Shown: piece by piece, positions 5,166 through 58,530 of the stretch
Layout: every line of letters starts with the position of its first letter
Numbering within the stretch: position 1 is the first letter of the stretch
Assembly (NCBI RefSeq): GCF_963921235.1
Contig: NC_086097.1
Coordinates: 147,128,001-147,192,000 of the forward strand
Direction of reading: 5' to 3'
Source of the DNA: Mobula hypostoma
Taxonomy: Eukaryota
Length of the DNA stretch: 64,000 nucleotides
The notes under the pieces: generated by a model
What the model saw: the letters and a program-made list of their open reading frames with translations, nothing else
What the model was told of the DNA's origin: nothing
Database searches by the model: none
Program-made: the position numbers and the translations under genes

Positions 5166-6228
5166 CTGCTACTATATTTTGAAATAACTCAAAAAATATA
5201 CATGCTGATAATTTTTAAATCAAATTGTATACTTTCTCCATAGGGATCTTTGGTTGAAGCCTTCGAATACTATCTGGTTAATGGTAGGGGTGTGTTTTAA
5301 TCAGGCATTACTCATCCAAATGTAGTTCCTCCCTCCCCCCCAAAGATCTGTGTTTATTTATTGAGAAATATACTTTGCCTAACTTCCATGGCTGGTCTGG
5401 GGATATAATGGCCTCAAAGGAGACTGCTCAAGCTCTAAATTGGAATTGTAGATTTGTTCAAATTTTATCTGAGTGAAAAGTCTCCTGGGAGAAGCACTGA
5501 CACTTATTGATGATGGCTGTGGTATGTGATCAAAGGTTACTAGATATAATGTAGTCTGGATTTCTAAAGATTTGTAAATATTTATAATTGTGTTAACTGC
5601 ATTTTATGGGAAGAAAATAAATGTTTATTTCAGTATTTTTCACATGAAACAGAGATCATTGATTTTATTTTGTGGAACGAGTTGGTGGAGCAGCAGAGAT
5701 GAAAATATACTTCAATTTTCTGAAGCTTTAATATTATCAGAAGTTAAGTAAGATAAAAGGCATAGTGTATCTTATGGAATCTGTGGTAGGAACTGTGAAG
5801 CTGGTTTGACTGATTTCTTTAATGCTCTGCTTTGCTCTTATTTCAGAAAAATAATGCTACTGGAAGTATTGAGCCTTTCTGTCGGAATGAATGGTGACAG
5901 ATGCAAAGACCTGTCACTTAAGCTAAGCTCACAAAAGGAAATTGGCTGTATCTGACACATTCAGTGTCCTTGGAGAACAATTCCTTATATCCTCTTTCAC
6001 ATAAACCTGGCATCCATACCATACAGGGTGACATCGGGTCAATTTTCCATGTTCCATACCAGGCACAGTGTAACAGGATGGCCATTATTAAACACAGTTA
6101 AACTGCTGTGCTTAATGAAATCAAAATATCAGTATAATCTGGGTCTCAGGTTGCTGAAAGATGACAGATAGAGCAATTGTTTTGCTCTGGTTGGATCCAA
6201 ACTGTCAACCTTAATGCCTGCCACCTAG

Positions 6229-6447
6229 AGTTGTGTATTTAGTATATAGTATCAGTAGTATTTGAATAATATTGGAAATATGTTGTTGATTAAGCATTAT
6301 TTGTTTGTCTAAATATTTTATTATGGGTTATATGGTTATATGCAAAAATAAGAGAACTGCATTGCGATAACTCTATTATATAATACATGCGCACCTCACT
6401 TGAAGTAAAGAACACACTTAAAAACTCATTTCTCTTGGATTTCCTGT
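6229..6447 (+). repeat. 5' LTR (3'-truncated)
   Basis: GTTGTGTATTTA...TCAGTAGTATTTGAATAATATTGGAAATATGTTGTTGATT closely matches 8708-8765. Confidence 0.8.
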
Positions 6448-7120
6448 GAAACCCCTTTTTACTGGGTATCTCTGGAAATGTGACTTGTTAGCCCCTCACT
6501 AACAGCCACTAGACTCCACGGCGAGATCCTCACCTTTCTCAGTCTTGATGTGTCCAGAGTGTACACGACATTAGTCCCGCCAAATCCGTGAGGTTGTGAT
6601 GTCTTACCCACACAAACCTGGTTTGTGTGAATGCTGTGTGATCTACTGCTCCCAGCAACCACCCGTCAGCAAGAAATAACAAATTGTACATTGCATACAA
6701 TTATAAAGAAGTATATTTAAGAACGTTTACTTAGGCTAACAGTTATTACAGGAAAGAAAGAAAAAAAATCAAAAAGGGCCCATTATATTTTAACAGTCAA
6801 ATGTGCACGTAAGTTGGAGCTCATCACAAACTTGTCTGTAACTCACGTGGTGGACCCTTGGTCCGCATGAAAGCACGCACCAACTTCCGAATGTCGGTTG
6901 AAATCCATCTCGAACAAACAGTCTCTCCTGTGGGAGTATTGGTCTTTGAAGCCATTCATCTACACAAAGCACTTTGTGCAACATGGACAGCATTCTCAGC
7001 CATCTTCCCATCTATCTTCTCCCAGCTCCCGCCAAAAAAAGGCCTCAACCCACACTAGTATCCTCAGAAAACCTTTCCACCCAGCATTCCCTGGAACCTT
7101 CTCCCAATTTCACCATCCTG
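6448..7120. repeat. Unclassified insertion (possibly another LTR) replacing the end of the 5' LTR, the PBS and the gag start
   Basis: Similarity to the 3' LTR stops at ~6447 and gag-like sequence resumes at ~7120; the intervening sequence has no recognisable coding motif. Confidence 0.35.
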
Positions 7121-7259
7121 ACTGAAGAGATTGTCTGAAAATTGTCAGTTTGTAAGAGCCTTAAAGATGAACTATGTTTAGTTCGTGGTACCTTACAAGA
7201 AAGTATTCAAAAATAACTCTTAACTAAACGCAAGAAAAGCAATATAGCTTACAGCAGAA

Positions 7260-7599
7260 GTGAACAGCAAATTAATTAAAATGGAATTAGACACTGGCTC
7301 AGCTGTTACATTCATTCCACAAAATGAGTTTGAAAGACATTTCAAAGATACTGAACTGAAGCCTGCAGACTTCCAACTAAGAACGTATACTGGAGAAAAG
7401 ATAACTCCTGTGGGAATGACATTCGTAACAGTGATATACAATAGTCAAAAAGCCACATTGCATTTGCATGTGGTAAAAACAGGGGCATCAACATTCTGGG
7501 GACATGACTGGTTGAGACAACTACAACCTGATTGTAGATCTATCCACCATTTCCTACAATAAAGTCAACTGAAAGTGAAAGGTACTGAATGAGGCCACA
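7260..7599 (+). pseudogene. Gypsy aspartic protease (retropepsin) remnant
   Basis: 'LIKMELDTGSAVTFI...LRTYTGEKITPVG...FWGHDWLRQL': the DTG catalytic motif and a G-x-D-W-L flap-like motif. Confidence 0.9.
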
Positions 7600-7649
7600 A
7601 TTGTCTCCATGCTGTAGACATGAACTGCTCCCCTATCGAGTACAAACGA

Positions 7650-8352
7650 GTGTTGGTGCCAGCCTTTGAGCCTCTGGTGGGAAAGCATATTGGACTAAGG
7701 AAGGATCATGCTGCTCAGAGGAATCATGAAAGTGATGAAAGCAGTGGTCCAACTACAACAGTTTTGTAGGTGAGATATCTGAGAAAGCTTCTGATCTGTT
7801 AATCAGGCAGTTACTTGCTAAATGTGGCTGGTTTTAAGCTGGAACAGAGTGCAAGGAGCTTCAGAAAAGTTGCAAGCATTCAGCTTTTGTGAGTAAAAAG
7901 CACCAGAATCTACTTTGTGTGCATTAAGGTTATTGCATGAACTTCAAGTGCAAGACAAAAAGCTGCTTGTATTAGTAGATGCAAAGACCAAAGCCCAGCT
8001 GGCTGAATGGAAGGCCAAAAAGAAAGGAGTCAGTGGCGATGTGGAAACAGAGGATTTTTCAGAAAATGTTGTGGATGAGGAAACCAAAATGGAGAGTTTC
8101 GATTGTAATGGGAGCAATAGAAGGATTAATAAGAGAATACTCAAATGAACTAAATGCACCTTCTCAAGGTCAAGATGCACAAACTAGAAAGACAAAAAAG
8201 GAAATGAAAGCGGAGGATGACAGTGCTATGGAAATGGAAGAGTATAAATGAGACCAAATTTCTTTGAGAAATTAACAAATTCAGAGATACTCACAAAAAG
8301 TGCGAAGAAGAAAAAGGAAGGCATAAAAAAGAAGTAGAAAAAGAGAAGAAAG
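7650..8352 (+). pseudogene. RBM25: Processed (intronless) RBM25 fragment: RRM and start of the charged region
   Basis: Across frameshifts it reads VLVP..VGKHIGLRKDH..SGPTTTVFVG.ISEKASDLLIRQLLAKCG.VLSWNRVQGASEKLQAFSFCE*KAPESTLCALRLLHELQVQDKKLLVLVDAKTKAQLAEWKAKKK..VDEETK..GAIEGLIREYSNELNAPSQ..AMEMEEYK*D..KFRDTHKK, collinear with vertebrate RBM25. Contains stops and frameshifts. Confidence 0.93.
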
Positions 8353-8706
8353 ATGGCTAGAGCTGTCAGAATCACTTCCTACTGTCTCAGAGTCAACTCC
8401 TACAACCACCATGGAGGAGGCACAAAAGCTGAGATTGTTTCACGGCCACAAGTCTTACCTGCCAAGCAGAGTAACTTCCCTTGTCGGGGAAGTGATTATC
8501 CCACAAGAGTAAAAAAAACTCCACAGCAATTAAATCTTTAGGCCTGAATGGGACAATTTAAAAATTGACTATGCTGTGAAAGTGTGTATAGTAGTTGTAT
8601 AGTAGTGTGTATAGTAGTTTCATTATATAGTTGATATGCATATGCTATGTATATCTTTGAAATGCATTCTATATTGAGTTGGAGTTTATAACTATGCATG
8701 GAGGAA

Positions 8707-8952
8707 TGTTGTGTATTTAATATTTCAGTAGTATTTGAATAATATTGCAAATATGTTGTTGATTGAGCATTCTTTATTTAAATAATTCATTACAGGTTAT
8801 ATGTAAAAATACATCAATTGTATACATCATGACGCTACCACGTGAAATGTGCGTGCGTCACTTAAAAGAAAGAACAAACTTAAGTCTCGCATCTCTTGGC
8901 TCGCTGGTGTACGTTTGAATTAGTTCAGTGTTTTGAAGTTACCAAACATACA
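8707..8952 (+). repeat. 3' LTR
   Basis: Starts TGTTGTG just after the polypurine tract, ends ...AAACATACA, and repeats 6229-6447. Confidence 0.85.
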
Positions 8953-11110
8953 GGTAGCCTGGTAGTACCGGTACTGACTAAACTAGTGTCAGATATTGAG
9001 AAAATAATTACCTCACATGTTCACCAATATACCTGTTGCTAAGAAAATAATTGTAGTGCCTGTGAAGTTATACAGTCTCATCCCTATAAAGTGGTTTCTT
9101 TTTATCATATAATTTGAGAATATTGCTATTCCTCTTTCTTTCATCATTGATAAGTTGGAAAAGAAACCCCTGATTTGTTGGTTCTGTGGAAAATGTTCTG
9201 GATAACAACTAGGACTTCAATCTGCTGCGTATAGTAGGAATGAAAGTCTTCATATGAAATGCACGTAGACATGTAGAGTCTTATCACCCGAAGATTGCTT
9301 ATCATTAGAAACTTCCATTTCAGAGGAAGAAATAATAACTGCAATCTCATCACTGAATTCTGGTAAAGCACCCGGTCCGGATGGGTTTACAGTGGAATTT
9401 TAAAAATTCTTTTCCTCCATTCTCTCTCCAAAGTTGTCTACAATATTCAAGGAAGCAATCAGTTTAGGTAAATTACCACAATCATTTTATGAAGCCTCTA
9501 TTTCTCTAATCCTTAAAAAGAATAAAGATCCTACTGATTGTGCATCATACAGACCGATATCTCTTTTGAATGTAGACTCAAAAATTTTTTCAAAAATTCT
9601 AGAAACTAGGTTAGAAAAGGTGTTAATTATATCCATGGGTCAAACCGGATTTATTAAAAATCGCTATTCATCCTTTAATATTAGGAGGTTAATGAATATT
9701 GTTTATACCCCCCTCACTCACTACCCCGGAATGTATTATCTCATTAGATGCTGAGAAAGCCTTTGACAGAGTTGAATGACCTTATTTATTTAATGTTCTT
9801 GAGAAATTTAATTTTAGTCTGACATTTATATCTTGGATTAAATTGTTATATTACTCCCCGGTAGCCTCGGTTTGTACAAATAATCATAGATCTTTTTTTC
9901 GTCTTTTTCGTGGTACTAGGCAAGGTTGCCCTCTTAGTCCTTTACTATTCAATATTGCCCCTCAACCTTTAGCAATTGCTATTCGTGACTCGCCAAATAT
10001 TTTTGGTATTACCCGCAGAAACGATATACATAAATTATCATTATATGCAGATGATTTGTTGTTATACATCTCCAATCCGGAGAAGTCAATTCCTGCTACT
10101 CTAGGTTTGTTGGCTCAATTTAGTAACTTCTCTGGTTACAAATTGAATCTTAATAAGAGTGAATTATTCCCTTTAAATAAGCAGGTACCTATTTATGGAT
10201 GTTTACCATTTAAATTGGTTACTGATTTATTTATATATTTAGGGATAACAATTACGAAAAAATATAAAGATTTATTTAAAGCTAATTTTTTACCTTTAAT
10301 TGATCAGATTAAACTTTTGTTTACTAAATGGTCACCAATCTCTTTGTCTTTGATTGGTTGGATTAATGCTATTAAGATGATCATTTTGCCCAAATTTTTG
10401 TATGTATTTCAATTGGTTCCAATTTTTATCCCAAAATCTTTTTTTGATAACGTAGATTCAAAAATTTCCTCATATATTTGGCAGAACAAAAATCCTAGGT
10501 TAGGTAAAAGGTATCTACAGAAATCTAAAAAGGGGGGGGGGCTTGCCCTCCCGAATTTTAGATTCTATTATTGGGCAATTAATATTCGATATTTAAAATT
10601 TTGGTTACGAGATTTGGATGTATCTTTAAACCCACACTGGGTAAATCTTGAAAGTAATTCATTACATGGGCTTTCCTTGGGTTCGGTTTTAGGAACTTCG
10701 CTTCCTTTTACTTCTTATAAATTGTATAAACAAATGAATAACCCAATAGTTAAGCATACTTTACGTATAGTTTCAATTTCGGAGATTTTTTGGGATTAAT
10801 CTATTTATTCTAGCAAGTCCCATTATATCAAATTTCCTTTTTCAACCTTCCACTATGGATCAAGCTTACTCTGACTGGAAAAACCAAAGGTATAATATCT
10901 TTTCGCGATTTATTTTTGGATAATTGTTTCATGTCTTTTGATCAACTCTCTAATAAATATAACTTACCCAGATCTCACTTTTTTAGATATCTACAGATTA
11001 GAAACTTTTTAGTTACTGTTTCTCCTAATTTTCCACACCCATATCCAATGGACACTTCGGAAAAAATTTTAGATTTAAATCTTTCTCAGAAAGGTGTAGT
11101 AGCAATTATA

Positions 11111-13213
11111 TACAACAATTATACAACAATTGTTCATCCCAGTTTGGCAAAAGAATAAATCAAGGAAGGTAGTGCACCCGTGGCTGACAAGAGAAATTAG
11201 GGATAGTATCAATTCCAAAGAAGTAGCATACAAATTAGCCAGAGAAAGTGGCTCACCTGAGGACTGGGAGAAATTCAGAGTTCAGCAGAGGAGGACAAAG
11301 GGCTTAATTAGGAAGGGGAAAAAAGATTATGAGAGAAAACTGGCAGAGAACATAAAAACGGACTGTAAAAGCTTTTATAGATATGTAAAAAGGAAAAGAC
11401 TGATAAAGACAAATGTAGGTCCCCTGCAAACAGAAACAGGTGAATTGATTATGGGGAGCAAGGACATGGCAGACCAATTGAATAATTACTTTGGTTCTGT
11501 CTTCACTAAGGAGGACATAAATAATCTTCCAGAAATAGTAAGGGACAGAGGGTCCAGTGAGATGGAGGAACTGAGCGAAATACATGTTAGTAGGGAAGTG
11601 GTGTTAGGTAAATTGAAGGGATTGAAGGCAGATAAATCCCCAGGGCCAGATGGTCTGCATCCCAGAGTGCTTAAGGAAGTGGCCCAAGAAATAGTGGATG
11701 CATTAGTGATAATTTTTCAAAACTCGTTAGATTCTGGACTAGTTCCTGAGGATTGGAGGGTGGCTAATGTAACCCCACTTTTTAAAAAAGGAGGGAGAGA
11801 GAAACCGGGGAATTATAGGCCGGTTAGCCTAACGTCGGTGGTGGGGAAACTGCTGGAGTCAGTTATCAAGGATGTGATAACAGCACATTTGGAAAGCGGT
11901 GAAATGATCGGACAAAGTCAGCATGGATTTGTGAAAGGAAAATCATGTCTGACGAATCTCATAGAATTTTTTGAGGATGTAACTAGTAGAGTGGATAGGG
12001 GAGAACCAGTGGATGTGGTATATTTGGATTTTCAAAAGGCTTTTGACAAGGTCCCACATAGGAGATTAGTGTGCAAACTTAAAGCACACGGTATTGGGGG
12101 TAAGGTATTGGTGTGGGTGGAGAATTGGTTAGCAGACAGGAAGCAAAGAGTGGGAATAAACGGGACCTTTTCAGAATGGCAGGCGGTGACTAGTGGGGTA
12201 CCGCAAGGCTCAGTGCTGGGACCCCAGTTGTTTACAATATATATTAATGACTTGGATGAGGGAATTAAATGCGGCATCTCCAAGTTTGCGGATGACACGA
12301 AGCTGGGTGGCAGTGTTAGCAGTGAGGAGGATGCTAAGAGGATGCAGGGTGACTTGGATAGGTTGGGTGAGTGGGCAAACTCATGGCAGATGCAATTTAA
12401 TGTGGATAAATGTGAAGTTATCCACTTTGGTGGCAAAAATAGGAAAACAGATTATTATCTGAATGGTGGCCGATTAGGAAAAGGGGAGGTGCAACGAGAC
12501 CTGGGTGTCATTATACACCAGTCATTGAAAGTGGGCATGCAGGTACAGCAGGCGGTGAAAAAGGCGAACGGTATGCTGGCATTTATAGCGAGAGGATTCG
12601 AGTACAGGAGCAGGGAGGTACTACTGCAGTTGTACAAGGCCTTGGTGAGACCACACCTGGAGTATTGTGTGCAGTTTTGGTCCCCTAATCTGAGGAAAGA
12701 CATCTTTGCCATAGAGGGAGTACAAAGAAGGTTCACCAGATTGATTCCTGGGATGGCAGGTCTTTCATATGAAGAAAGACTGGATGAACTGGGCTTGTAC
12801 TCGTTGGAATTTAGAAGATTGAGGGGGGATCTGAATGAAACGTATAAGATCCTAAAGGGATTGGACAGGCTAGATGCAGGAAGATTGTTCCCGATGTTGG
12901 GGAGGTCTAGAACGAGGGGTCACAGTTTGAGGATAGAGGGGAAGCCTTTTAGGACCGAGGTTAGGAAAAACTTCTTCACACAGAGAGTGGTGAATCTGTG
13001 GAATTCTCTGCCACAGCAAACTGTTGAGGCCAGTTCATTAGCTATGTTTAAAAGGAAGTTAGATATGGCCCTTGTGGCTACAGGGGTCAGGGGGTATGGA
13101 GGGAAGGCTGGGTTCTGAGTTGGATGATCAGCCATGATCATAATAAATGGCGGTGCAGGCTCGAAGGGCCGAATGGCCTACTCCTGCACCTATTTTCTAT
13201 GTTTCTATGTTTC
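11111..13213 (+). mobile_element. Young 5'-truncated CR1 (HER1-like) LINE nested in L1
   Basis: Uninterrupted RT frame; 3'UTR GGCTCGAAGGGCCGAATGGCCTACTCCTGC followed by a (TTTCTATG)n tail. The L1 peptide 'VVAIIYN|IIMNLCPDAS' resumes on the far side. Confidence 0.96.
11130..13118 (+). CDS. CR1 ORF2 reverse transcriptase (662-aa open frame, endonuclease missing)
   Basis: KSPGPDG, NYRPVSLTS, YLDFQKAFDKVPH, SGVPQGSVLGP, KFADDTK and RPHLEYCVQFWSP. The start is a truncation point, so it is probably not translated. Confidence 0.9.
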   Translation: MFIPVWQKNKSRKVVHPWLTREIRDSINSKEVAYKLARESGSPEDWEKFRVQQRRTKGLIRKGKKDYERKLAENIKTDCKSFYRYVKRKRLIKTNVGPLQTETGELIMGSKDMADQLNNYFGSVFTKEDINNLPEIVRDRGSSEMEELSEIHVSREVVLGKLKGLKADKSPGPDGLHPRVLKEVAQEIVDALVIIFQNSLDSGLVPEDWRVANVTPLFKKGGREKPGNYRPVSLTSVVGKLLESVIKDVITAHLESGEMIGQSQHGFVKGKSCLTNLIEFFEDVTSRVDRGEPVDVVYLDFQKAFDKVPHRRLVCKLKAHGIGGKVLVWVENWLADRKQRVGINGTFSEWQAVTSGVPQGSVLGPQLFTIYINDLDEGIKCGISKFADDTKLGGSVSSEEDAKRMQGDLDRLGEWANSWQMQFNVDKCEVIHFGGKNRKTDYYLNGGRLGKGEVQRDLGVIIHQSLKVGMQVQQAVKKANGMLAFIARGFEYRSREVLLQLYKALVRPHLEYCVQFWSPNLRKDIFAIEGVQRRFTRLIPGMAGLSYEERLDELGLYSLEFRRLRGDLNETYKILKGLDRLDAGRLFPMLGRSRTRGHSLRIEGKPFRTEVRKNFFTQRVVNLWNSLPQQTVEASSLAMFKRKLDMALVATGVRGYGGKAGF

Positions 13214-36859: not shown

Positions 36860-39800
36860 ATAAGACATAGGAGCCGAATTGGCCATTGAGTCTGCTCCAA
36901 TATTCAACCATTTATTTTGATTTATGTTCCTTCTCAACCTCATTCTTCTGCCCTTACTAATAGTCATAGTCATAGTCATACTTTATTGATCCCGGGGGAA
37001 ATTGTTTTTTGTTACAGTTGCACCATAAATAATAAATAGTAATAGAACCATAAATAGTTAAATAGTAATATGTAAATTATGCCAGTAAATTATGAAATAA
37101 GTCCAGGACCAGCCTATTGGCTCAGGGTGTCTGAACCTCCAAGGGAGGAGTTGTAAAGTTTGATGGCCACAGGCAGGAATGACTTCCTATGACACTCAGT
37201 GCTGCATCTTGGTCTCTGGTTGAATGTACTCCTGTGCCCACCCAGTCCATTATGTAGTGGATGGGAGACATTGACCAAGATGGCATGCAACTTGGACAGC
37301 ATCCTCTTTTCAGACACCTCCGTGAGAGAGTCCAGTTCCATCCCCACAACATCACTGGCCTTACGGATGAGTTTGTTGATTCTGTTGGTGTCTGCTACCC
37401 TCAGTCTGCTGCCCCAGCACACAACAGCAAACATGATAGCACTGGCCACCACAGACTCGTAGAACATCCTCAGCATCGTCCGGCAGATGTTAAAGGACCT
37501 CAGTCTCCTCAGGAAATAGAGACGGCTCTGACCCTTCTTGTAGACAGCCTCAGTGTTCTTTGACCAGGCCAGTTTATTGTCAATTCGTATCCCCAGGTAT
37601 TTGTGATCCTCCACCATGTCCACACTGACCCCCTGGATGGAAGCAGGGGTCACCGGTACCTTAGCTCTCCTCAGGTCTAGCACCAGCTCCTTAGTCTTTT
37701 TCACATTAAGCTGCAGATAATTCTGCTCACACCATGTGACAAAGTTTCCTACCGTAGCCCTGTACTCAGCCTCATCTTCCTTGCTGATGCATCCAACTAT
37801 GGCAGAGTCATCTGAAAACTTCTGAAGATGGCAAGACTCTGTGCGGTAGTTGAAGTCTGAGGTGTAAAAGGTGCAGAGAAAGGGAGACAAGACAGTCCCC
37901 TGTGGAGCCCCAGTGCTGCTGATCACTCTGTGAGACACACAGTGTTGCAAGCACACGTACTGTGGTCTGCCAGTCAGGTAATCAAGAATCCATGATACCA
38001 GGGAAGCATCCACCTGCATCACTGTCAGCTTCTCCCCCAGCAGAGCAGGGCGGATGGTGTTGAATGCACTGGAGAAGTCAAAAAACATAACCCTCACAGT
38101 GCTCGCTGGCTTGTCCAGGTGGGCCTAGACACAGTTCAGCAGGTAGACGATGGCATCCTCAACTCCTAGTCGGGGCTGGTAGGCGAACTGCAGGGGATCT
38201 AAGTGTGGCCTGACCATAGGCCGGAGCAGCTCCAGAACATGTCTCTCCAGGGTCTTCATGATGTGGGAGGCCAATGCCACCAGTCTGTAGTCATTGGGGC
38301 CACTGGGGTGCAGCGTCTTCGGCACAGGGACAAGGCAGGACATCTTCCACATAACAGGAACCCTCCGGAGCCTCAGGCTCAGGTTGAATACATGGCGAAG
38401 TACTCCACATAGCTGAGGGGCACAGGCTTTGAACACCCTGGTACTGACACCATCCGGTCCTGCAGCCTTGCTTGGGTTGAGACGTTTCAGCTGTCTTCTC
38501 ACCTGTTCAGCTGTGAAGCCCACCGTGGTGGTTTCATGTGGGGAAGGGGTATAGTCATGAGAGCAGGGTGGGGGACTGTGAGGAGGGGTAGGAGGGGAGA
38601 GTGGAATATGTGTTGGTTGGGGGCCGACAACAGATGGCTCATGTGTGGGATGGGCAGGGGCCACAATGTCAAATCTGTTAAAGAACAGGTTAAGTTCATT
38701 GGCCCTGTCCACACTGCCTTCCGCTCCTCTGTTGCAAGTTTGCCGGAACCCAGTGATGGTCCTCATCCCCCTCCAGACCTCTCTCATGTTGTTCTGCTGG
38801 AGTTTCCACTCAAGCTTCCTCCTGTACCTGTCTTTAGCCTCCCTGATCCTGGCTTTCAGGTCCCTCTGTATTGCCCTCAGCTCCTCCCTATTTCCATCTC
38901 TAAATGCCCTCTTTTTAGCATTCAGGATGTCCTTAATTTCCTTTGTCACCCATGGCTTGGTATTTGAATAACAAAGGACAATTCTTGTCGGAACATTGCA
39001 GTCCACACAGAAGTTGATGTAATCAGTGATGCCTTCTGTGAGCCCATCAATATCCTCTCCATGTGGCTCACAGAGTGTCTGCCAGTCTGTCACCTCAAAA
39101 CAACCCTGGAGCGCCTCATAAGCCTCCTCTGACCATTTCCTCACTGTCCTCGAGGTTGCAGGTTTACTCTTCACCAGAGGCACGTAGCAGGGTATTAGAT
39201 GCACCAGGTTGTGATCTGACCTTCCCAGTGGGGGGAGGGGAGAGGACCTGTATGCATCCTTAACGTTAGCGTACATCAAATCCAGAGTCCTCTCCCCTCT
39301 GGTTGTACAGCTCACATACTGCGTGAAGTTGGGCAGTGTTCTAGCCATGGTAACCTGGTTGAAGTCACCCGAGATGGTAATGAGGGCAGTCGGGTGCTGG
39401 GTTTGTAATCTGGCTATGACGGTGTAAATGATGCTAGTGCTCTCAGTGCAATTCCAGTCAGCTCGAACAGTCTGGAAGCCGTCTATGGATGGAAACGCTT
39501 TGATCGGGTATGTCCTCGTGCAGCCACGTCTCAGTGAAGCACATGACACTGCTCTCCCGAAATGTTCTCTGACTCCTGACAAGCGCAGTCAGTTCGTCCA
39601 TTTTATTCCCCAGCGCTCTCACATTTCCCATGATGAGAGAGGCGAGACACGGCTTATAACTTCTGTTCTCCATAAGCCTCTGTTGTCTCGACCTGGTCCT
39701 CTTCCTTCGCCTTTCTGATCCCCCTCTATGTGTTTTCCTCCAGATTTCAGCCGGGACGTCTGCTGCTCTGTTTGCTAAGCCGGCGGGCATGAGCGTAATT

Positions 39801-57312: not shown

Positions 57313-58530
57313 GAATGAGAATCAGAATCAGGTTTATTATCACCGGCATGTGACGTGAGATTTGTTAACTTAGCAGCAGCAGTTCAATGCAATACATAAT
57401 ATAGAAGAGAAAAAAATAAATAAAATAAATCAATCAATCAATCAATTATGGTATACGTATATTGAAGTATAGCCGCTGTCTTGCCTCCTTTATAACTACA
57501 TCGATATGTTGGGACCAGGTTAGATCCTTAGAAATCTTGACACCCAGGAACTTGAAACTGCTCACTTTCTCCACTTCCGAACCCTCTGTGAGGATTGGTA
57601 TGTGTTCCTTCATCTTACCCTTCCTGAAGTCCACAATCAGCTCTTTCGTCTTACTGACGTTGAGTGCCAGGTTGTTGCTGTGGCACCACTCCACTAGTTG
57701 GCATATCTCACTCATGTACACCCTCTCGTCACCACCTGAGATTCTACCAACAATGGTTGTATTGTCAGCAAATTTATAGATCATATTTGAGCTATGCCTA
57801 GCCACACATTCATGTGAATACAGAGAGTAGAGCAGTGGGTTAAGTATACACCCCTGAGGTGCGCCAGTGATGATCGTCAGTGAGGAGGAGAAGTTATCAC
57901 CAATCCACACAGACTGTGGTCTTCCGTTTAGGAAGTTGAGGATCCATTTGCAGGGGAAGGTACAGAGGCCCAGGTTCTTCAACTCCTCAATCAGGATTGT
58001 AGGAATGATGGTATTAAATGCTGAGCTATAGTCAATGAATGGCATCCTGACATAGGTGTTCGTGTTATCCAGGTGGTCTAGAGCCATGTGGAGAGCCATT
58101 GAGACTGCAACTGCCGTTGACCTATTGTGATGATAGGCAAATTTCAATGGGTGCAGGTCCTTGCTGAGGCAAGAGTTCAGTCTAGTCATGACCAACCCCT
58201 CAAAGCTTTTCATCACTGTAGATATGAGTGCTACCAGGCGATAGTCATTAAGGCGGCCCACATTATTCTTCTTAGGCACTGCTATAATTGTTGCCTTTTT
58301 GAAGTAAGTGGGAACCTCCGCCCGTAGCAATGAGAGGTTAAAAATATCCTTGAATACTCCTGCTAGTTGGTTGGCACAGATCTTCAGAGTCTTACCAGGT
58401 ACTCCATCGGGACCTTCTGCCTTGCGAGGGTTCACTCTCTTTACGACAGTCTAATATCGGCCTCTGAGACAGAGATCACAGGGTCATCTGGTGCAGCAGG
58501 GATCTTCACAGCTGTAGTTGTGTTCTCCAC
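57313..58530 (-). mobile_element. Rex1/Babar RT fragment with a deletion joining the RT directly to the tail
   Basis: 329-aa frame 'KAEGPDG..FIDYSSAFNTI..GAPQGC..YKFADN'; breaks at 'RQRLYF' (~57467) into the tail with (GAATCA)n. Confidence 0.9.

Follow-up and report, generated by a model that had tools for sequence, protein, structure and literature searches.

A Gypsy retrotransposon family of Mobula hypostoma with spliced RBM25 sequence in place of pol, likely formed once by template switching and likely copied in trans

The element at positions 6229-8952 of the window (the whole analysed stretch of 64,000 nucleotides from Mobula hypostoma) belongs to a family of Gypsy LTR retrotransposons in which spliced sequence of the host gene RBM25 stands in place of pol. 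We conclude with high confidence that this chimera likely arose once, by switching of the reverse transcriptase (RT) between templates, and was then likely copied in trans to about 1,000-2,200 genomic sites.

In the window, the element lies on the forward strand and has the order LTR, protease, intronless same-sense RBM25, pol tail, polypurine tract, LTR, as the first-pass annotation had proposed, with the exception of the gag label. The 5' LTR (6229-6440) retains the first ~212 of ~246 nt; this copy has lost the LTR end, the primer-binding site and most of gag. The 3' LTR (8707-8952) is complete, with TG...CA ends, and is preceded by a decayed polypurine tract (8697-8706); the two LTRs align over 6230-6438 and 8708-8899. 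The five letters just outside the LTRs, CCTAG (6224-6228) and GGTAG (8953-8957), form a decayed target-site duplication with 3/5 letters identical. The gag label can be kept for a short remnant at 7123-7232 only, which is followed by another deletion of ~385 nt. The segment 6441-7122, initially also read as gag, was rejected as such: it is the first ~685 nt of a separate, unrelated ~830-nt repeat, nested in the element, bounded by TG...CA, solo-LTR-like and cut at its far end. A genome search for this repeat yielded 4,829 candidates, with copies about 80% alike. In seven other loci examined the flanks were unrelated in six, while the seventh repeat lay within another copy of the RBM25 chimera in the opposite orientation; the repeat is seen at loci L115-L121.

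The Gypsy aspartic protease with the linker up to the switch point occupies 7233-7593 and is 50-55% identical to fish Gypsy polyproteins; the Pfam matches are weak and below the cut-offs (PF13975, E 1e-4, under the curated one), and fall in the frame 7248-7559. The RBM25 part had been placed at 7650-8352, of which the end holds (~8354), while the start does not, as the first captured exon begins already at 7603. Exons a-f (7603-8297, including the RRM) contain five frameshifts and four stops, consistent with the earlier description of the copy as dead. It is one dead family member, and the nested repeat and the deletions came later. Elsewhere in the window, 9269-10799, 11103-13118, 37114-39588 and 57446-58450 are ordinary LINE remnants, one of them with a stop-free RT frame of 671 aa.

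Host RBM25 was found through its PWI exon (C1:99,798,124-99,798,207, minus strand) on the same contig as the window (C1:147,128,001-147,192,000). Window positions 7603-8354 correspond to seven consecutive exons of this gene, a-f and the start of g, joined without introns and 75-91% identical to the host: exon a at 7603-7649, b at 7650-7819, c at 7820-7876, d at 7877-8037, e at 8038-8215, f at 8216-8297, and the start of the RE-rich exon g at 8298-8353, most of which is deleted in the window copy and which ends in the 3' switch point. Six exon-exon joints are crossed; the parent gene has introns of 1.7-6.1 kb at these joints, with its exons flanked by AG and GT ends. Thus, the parental locus, which it had been suggested to look for, bears introns, and an intronless parental region is no explanation of the structure. 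Neither poly(A) nor a target duplication of its own was found in the RBM25 insert, in the window or in the family copies. The mRNA 3' end is not in the insert either: the captured piece reaches ~30 nt into exon h and ends well before the PWI exon. The comparison of host exons and joints hence upholds the original description of the piece as free of introns, poly(A) and a target duplication of its own.

Exon a (C1:99832586-99832633 in the host, 48 nt) is present in a protein of the shark Heptranchias perlo and absent from a bird protein (P0053); the isoform captured therefore includes an exon that is lineage-specific or alternative. The closest RBM25 relative of one family copy is also that of Heptranchias perlo (79%). 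Human RBM25 presumably has a short exon between the positions of exons e and f; a motif search of the respective parent intron did not find one.

A pol-bearing partner was sought with an RT query from a fish relative, with 30 loci examined and four more fetched. In 16 of the 30 RT loci, LTR, gag and protease DNA resembling the chimera at 68-88% is followed by RT. All 20 pol-bearing copies share gag and protease with the chimera and continue into RT at the point where RBM25 begins in the chimera, and some extend to integrase, tail and 3' LTR. The domains of the fish Gypsy polyprotein P0003 map on the pol-bearing copies (for example, L163) in the order PR-RT-RH-IN of the Ty3/Gypsy superfamily. 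The element may be a member of the Mag clade, with which the short LTRs, the two CCHC knuckles (in P0003) and the 5-bp duplications would agree. No intact helper was seen among the 20 pol-bearing copies, all of which are broken, although their age is compatible with a helper role. The 30 best integrase-core loci were also considered as a partner and dropped, as they have no likeness to the window element and represent other Gypsy families.

Judged against these relatives, which have LTRs, gag and protease in common with the chimera, RBM25 stands in the place of RT, RNase H and integrase. Exactly between the two joints, both of which are inside coding exons, about 2.5 kb of pol is absent. The relatives match the chimera up to the 5' joint and resume at the 3' joint, confirming the claim that pol is missing exactly where the host sequence sits, and no pol sequence continuous across the insert was seen when the chimeras were compared to pol-bearing copies. 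Pol is hence replaced and not interrupted, and the piece is not framed by a target duplication or poly(A), which argues against an independent insertion into a Gypsy element.

At the 5' joint, pol-bearing copies read GAT GCC ACA GCA GTG; in the host, the upstream exon ends with CCT GCC ACA ACT and exon a starts with GTC; the chimera reads GAT GCC ACA ACT GTC. The nine letters ahead of exon a in the window are the end of the preceding host exon. Thus, the switch occurred within TGCCACA, and the capture spans one more exon joint. In the window, the letters of the switch point (7593-7602) occur both in pol and at the end of the RBM25 exon upstream, and RBM25 is fused in the protease frame. This seven-letter stretch is exact in 9 of the 20 pol-bearing copies. 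At the 3' joint, host exon h and the end of integrase share nine letters, GAGAAGAAA, present in 13 of 19 copies with the integrase end. Here the frames are offset, and RBM25 enters the C-terminal pol tail (8354-8541, after the integrase end) out of frame. For random point pairs, shared runs of seven or more letters arise at a frequency of 0.0007, and of nine or more, at 0.00009.

The family also includes a host-free deletion derivative, in which the integrase zinc-finger region is joined to the AG-rich site before the pol tail (loci L217, L221, L231, L232, L235; also L153 and L156). It lands at the same site as the 3' RBM25 joint, and this site hence resembles a switch hotspot.

These observations support the initial proposal of two template switches onto a co-packaged RBM25 mRNA, as short shared stretches are found at both joints. 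The mRNA would likely have been packaged together with the Gypsy element RNA; the reverse transcriptase would have jumped onto it at TGCCACA and returned to the element at GAGAAGAAA. The single founder hybrid would then have been copied in trans by pol-bearing relatives, at that time intact. Shorter derivatives came from more jumps between AG-rich repeats, and at least one of them was in turn copied.

An RBM25 retrocopy made by a LINE could, instead, have been inserted into a Gypsy element, or joined to it through a later DNA deletion, with the composite amplified afterwards. The window is rich in LINEs with long frames, and a later deletion could take poly(A), the target duplication and pol at once. 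However, two separate deletions would be needed, each ending at letters shared by a host exon and pol, with the joints within coding exons and ~2.5 kb of pol missing exactly between them; the 3' landing site is also used by the host-free derivative, and the founder had not drifted from the host mRNA. We therefore regard this scenario as very unlikely. A LINE-made processed pseudogene proper was rejected, as the mRNA 3' end, poly(A) and a target duplication of its own are all missing.

A DNA search of the 3.48-Gb assembly with 7600-8360 as the query yielded 2,896 candidates, of which the best 40 were scored. All 40 matched the RBM25 query, the 39 besides the window copy at 79-88%, and they are distributed over 15 contigs. 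With 10 kb of context, these loci display a common plan: LTR (~245 nt), primer-binding site, gag, protease, RBM25, pol tail, polypurine tract, LTR, with the primer-binding site lost from the window copy kept in other copies. An undisturbed chimeric copy is ~3.2 kb long. Direct repeats were seen on both sides of the insert at 23 of the 40 loci, some of which may be nested repeats.

A 24-letter pattern of the chimeric 5' joint, with at most two mismatches, has 994 matches genome-wide, compared to none for the reversed control, and RBM25 follows downstream in all 30 joint-pattern loci checked. Thus, the amplified chimeric family with the same junctions, whose existence the first-pass annotation had raised as a possibility, is present as dispersed copies. 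The corresponding 24-letter pattern of the pol-bearing joint has 2,095 matches; the two patterns differ at five letters, and so a single site cannot match both. Recall of the joint pattern was 18/40 (29-62%) in copies chosen for likeness to the window. Corrected by this recall, the number of chimeric copies is ~2,200, whereas the tail sample (chimeric in 5 of 30 loci, drawn from 2,590 tail-pattern matches) places it nearer 1,000. From these pattern counts we estimate about 1,000-2,200 chimeric copies, at least 994. The two routes also disagree on the chimeric share of the family, 32% by the 5' joint patterns and 17% (6-35%) by the tail sample. Read depth ratios of RBM25 bins to the single-copy flank are about 500-2,900, which agrees with the counts, although these ratios are not copy numbers.

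At the 13 loci where both outer ends were available, the target duplications had on average 3.46 of 5 letters alike, compared to 1.36 across loci; they were perfect at five loci and had 0-1 of 5 letters alike at two. As these 5-bp duplications are locus-specific and full copies have both LTRs, the two Gypsy halves are one element and do not come from different insertions. The same data bear on the possibility that the copies result from segmental duplication or repeated independent captures, and not from retrotransposition of one chimera. The window copy and a copy 1.1 Mb away are indeed 91-94% alike over exons a-d; however, the likeness stops beyond these exons and the flanks differ, which fits local gene conversion, and the best 40 matches lie on 15 contigs with different target duplications and the same joints. 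Locus-specific duplications refute this scenario as the main route, and we consider it extremely improbable. The tract in question is window 7603-8037 compared to L045 (C1:148.26 Mb), with similarity elsewhere at background; judging by its extent, it is likely a local gene-conversion tract. A frame-broken master, suggested by frameshifts common to the window copy and L045, was dropped for the same reason, the likeness being limited to exons a-d.

In copies free of later insertions, the insert length ranges from ~500 to 1,020 nt. A short form ending after exon e (14 copies) is linked to one variant (11/14 vs 1/16, p 9e-5), which points to a secondary master. The search for other inserts between the protease and the tail, another of the checks proposed initially, yielded no mRNA besides RBM25: no other host mRNA precedes the pol tail in the 30 sampled tail loci. 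In the tail region of loci L016 and L059, a ~51-nt unit originating from the start of the pol tail is repeated ~12 times in tandem.

The chimeric copies decay neutrally. Exons a-f are broken in 40/40 copies of the first sample and 29/30 of the second, and no intact chimeric copy was seen among the copies examined. Copy-copy distances over the three codon positions are flat (0.178/0.167/0.159 in the first sample, 0.201/0.192/0.193 in the second), rare variants have the mix of silent, replacement and stop changes expected under neutrality, and no signal of purifying selection among copies was found in these distances and frames. As, in addition, no stop-free frame exceeds 311 aa among 145 matches, a domesticated chimeric retrogene was ruled out.

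The differences from the host present in at least half of 70 copies comprise 23 silent and 3 replacement changes. One near-fixed replacement is the Heptranchias residue; as it matches the outgroup shark, the change was on the host side. The two others are at the deletion edge of the short form. The absence of replacements implies that there was no long neutral history of the founder. The silent changes between host and founder (23 over ~196 weighted sites) amount to 0.12, and the mean terminal branch of the copies is 0.108. Some purifying selection on the fusion frame of the founder may lie behind the 23 silent differences.

In gag-protease, covered sufficiently in 55 of 70 chimeric and 14 of 20 pol-bearing copies, the distances are 0.214 among chimeric copies, 0.216 among pol-bearing ones and 0.217 between the groups. 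The trees are star-like, the chimeric copies do not form one clade and there is one diagnostic column; hence a single founder, which we consider likely, rests on the shared joints. The equal gag-protease distances, together with no amino-acid drift in the founder, suggest that capture and spread were close in time, and the pattern fits a capture at the start of one burst.

The suggested dating by LTR divergence gave a distance of 0.28 (K2P) for the window pair and a family median of 0.25 (17 pairs, 0.16-0.33). The orthologous locus was also found, as the window insertion is common to four related organisms: their contigs bridge the flank and the 5' LTR with 1-9% other letters, and the 5' joint is bridged by a contig of one of the four. 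Comparison of the LTR distance to this 1-9% divergence gives the burst about three times the age of the split from the most distant relative. A mutation rate of 7e-10 per generation has been given for a different species (PMC10587355).

The host piece was likely a passenger without advantage. The same origin is, however, compatible with a captured piece that aided the spread, either through an in-frame Gag-protease-RRM-RE protein acting on the element RNA or by making small-RNA silencing costly, which we consider unlikely. Read by eye, about 32 of 40 copies have the 5' joint in frame, although this is expected in one case of three by chance. The in-frame joint is the sole positive support for an advantage as judged from the copies, and the host-free derivative, equally common in the tail sample (5/30 each), speaks against one. 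The RRM-coding exons b-d are kept in every length class listed, and between a sixth and a third of the family goes back to a single event; against this, there is no purifying signal among the copies, the longest stop-free frame is 311 aa among 145 matches, and the host silent change of 0.12 is close to the copies' decay of 0.108, with no sign of host escape. To our knowledge, RBM25 is not a silencing-pathway gene. In Drosophila telomeric elements, host pieces are described as raising the copy number (PMC13534243, in the sections considered). A broader version, in which the fusion or small-RNA shielding drove the spread and the AG-rich site is a general template-switch hotspot of the family, seems doubtful. 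If an advantage did exist, a captured splicing-factor gene would have benefited an LTR element in a vertebrate.

The family is a population-scale fossil record of one vertebrate gene capture, with the parent gene, pol-bearing helpers, both switch points and over 1,000 descendants in one genome. It shows that the host tolerated such a dose of sequence captured from an essential splicing factor, allows for a direct comparison of host-carrying and host-free defective derivatives, and provides many insertion markers for ray and shark phylogeny. Chimeric copies are also prone to mis-annotation as RBM25-like genes. An NCBI gene model of Hypanus sabinus (P0136) carries the same chimeric joint: its first ~80 residues comprise this joint with RBM25 exons a-b, and a hAT-type GTF2IRD2-like region comes next. 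Either the model is an artefact of annotation, or it has acquired an exon from a chimeric copy.

Among known systems, the fish Gypsy polyproteins P0003 (Acipenser sinensis) and P0004 (Cirrhinus mrigala) have a protease 52% identical to that of the chimera and a similar C-terminal tail, but keep pol, with gag-PR-RT-RH-IN in one frame. No protease-RBM25 fusion protein was present among seven hits in a representative protein library. Retroviral oncogene transduction similarly joins spliced host sequence to viral genes in one reading frame (gag-onc) and is helper-dependent. It is named in the part of PMC6431247 considered here. The RBM25 chimera differs in that no env was seen and there is no evidence of a selected fusion protein. 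The Drosophila TART-nxf2 and piwi/aub captures are similar in that a host gene piece is present in all copies of an amplified retroelement; as described in the sections of PMC13534243 considered, they differ in involving non-LTR elements, pieces of 140-235 bp, mostly piRNA-pathway genes and small-RNA evidence. Maize Bs1 and human HERV-K/FAM8A1, as cited in PMC5131818, resemble our case in carrying host cDNA within an LTR element. Bs1 contains pieces of three genes, with further cycles proposed, and FAM8A1 is a single case; copy numbers on the scale of the RBM25 family are not stated for them in the sections of PMC5131818 considered.

The mechanism itself has been published for LTR-mediated retrocopies of animals by Tan et al. 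(2016; PMC5131818, considered in part), and the RBM25 chimera has every defining feature described there. In both, internal ORFs are partly replaced by partial spliced mRNA, both LTRs are kept and poly(A) is absent; the shared stretch at switch points has a median of 6 bp in Tan et al. and is 7 and 9 here; a preferred return site is observed, in BLASTOPIA there and before the pol tail here; and further rounds occur as a non-autonomous element (PMC5131818). The chimera likewise has the marks of a non-autonomous LTR family: dispersed copies, their own duplications, retained cis signals and a pol-bearing partner with the same LTRs. In the sections of Tan et al. considered, 15 retrocopies polymorphic in flies are described; nine of these account for 18 insertion sites, which amounts to a few sites for each event. 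Other species have 1-8 cases each, and cartilaginous fish are not among the species named there (PMC5131818). Unlike these cases, the RBM25 chimera goes back to one old event, now represented by at least 994 copies; it has formed deletion subfamilies, and related species carry orthologous insertions. We found no report of an RBM25-carrying Gypsy family in the open-licence literature searched. Relative to that literature, judged from our pattern counts, what differs here is the scale: one capture event followed by over a thousand copies in a vertebrate.
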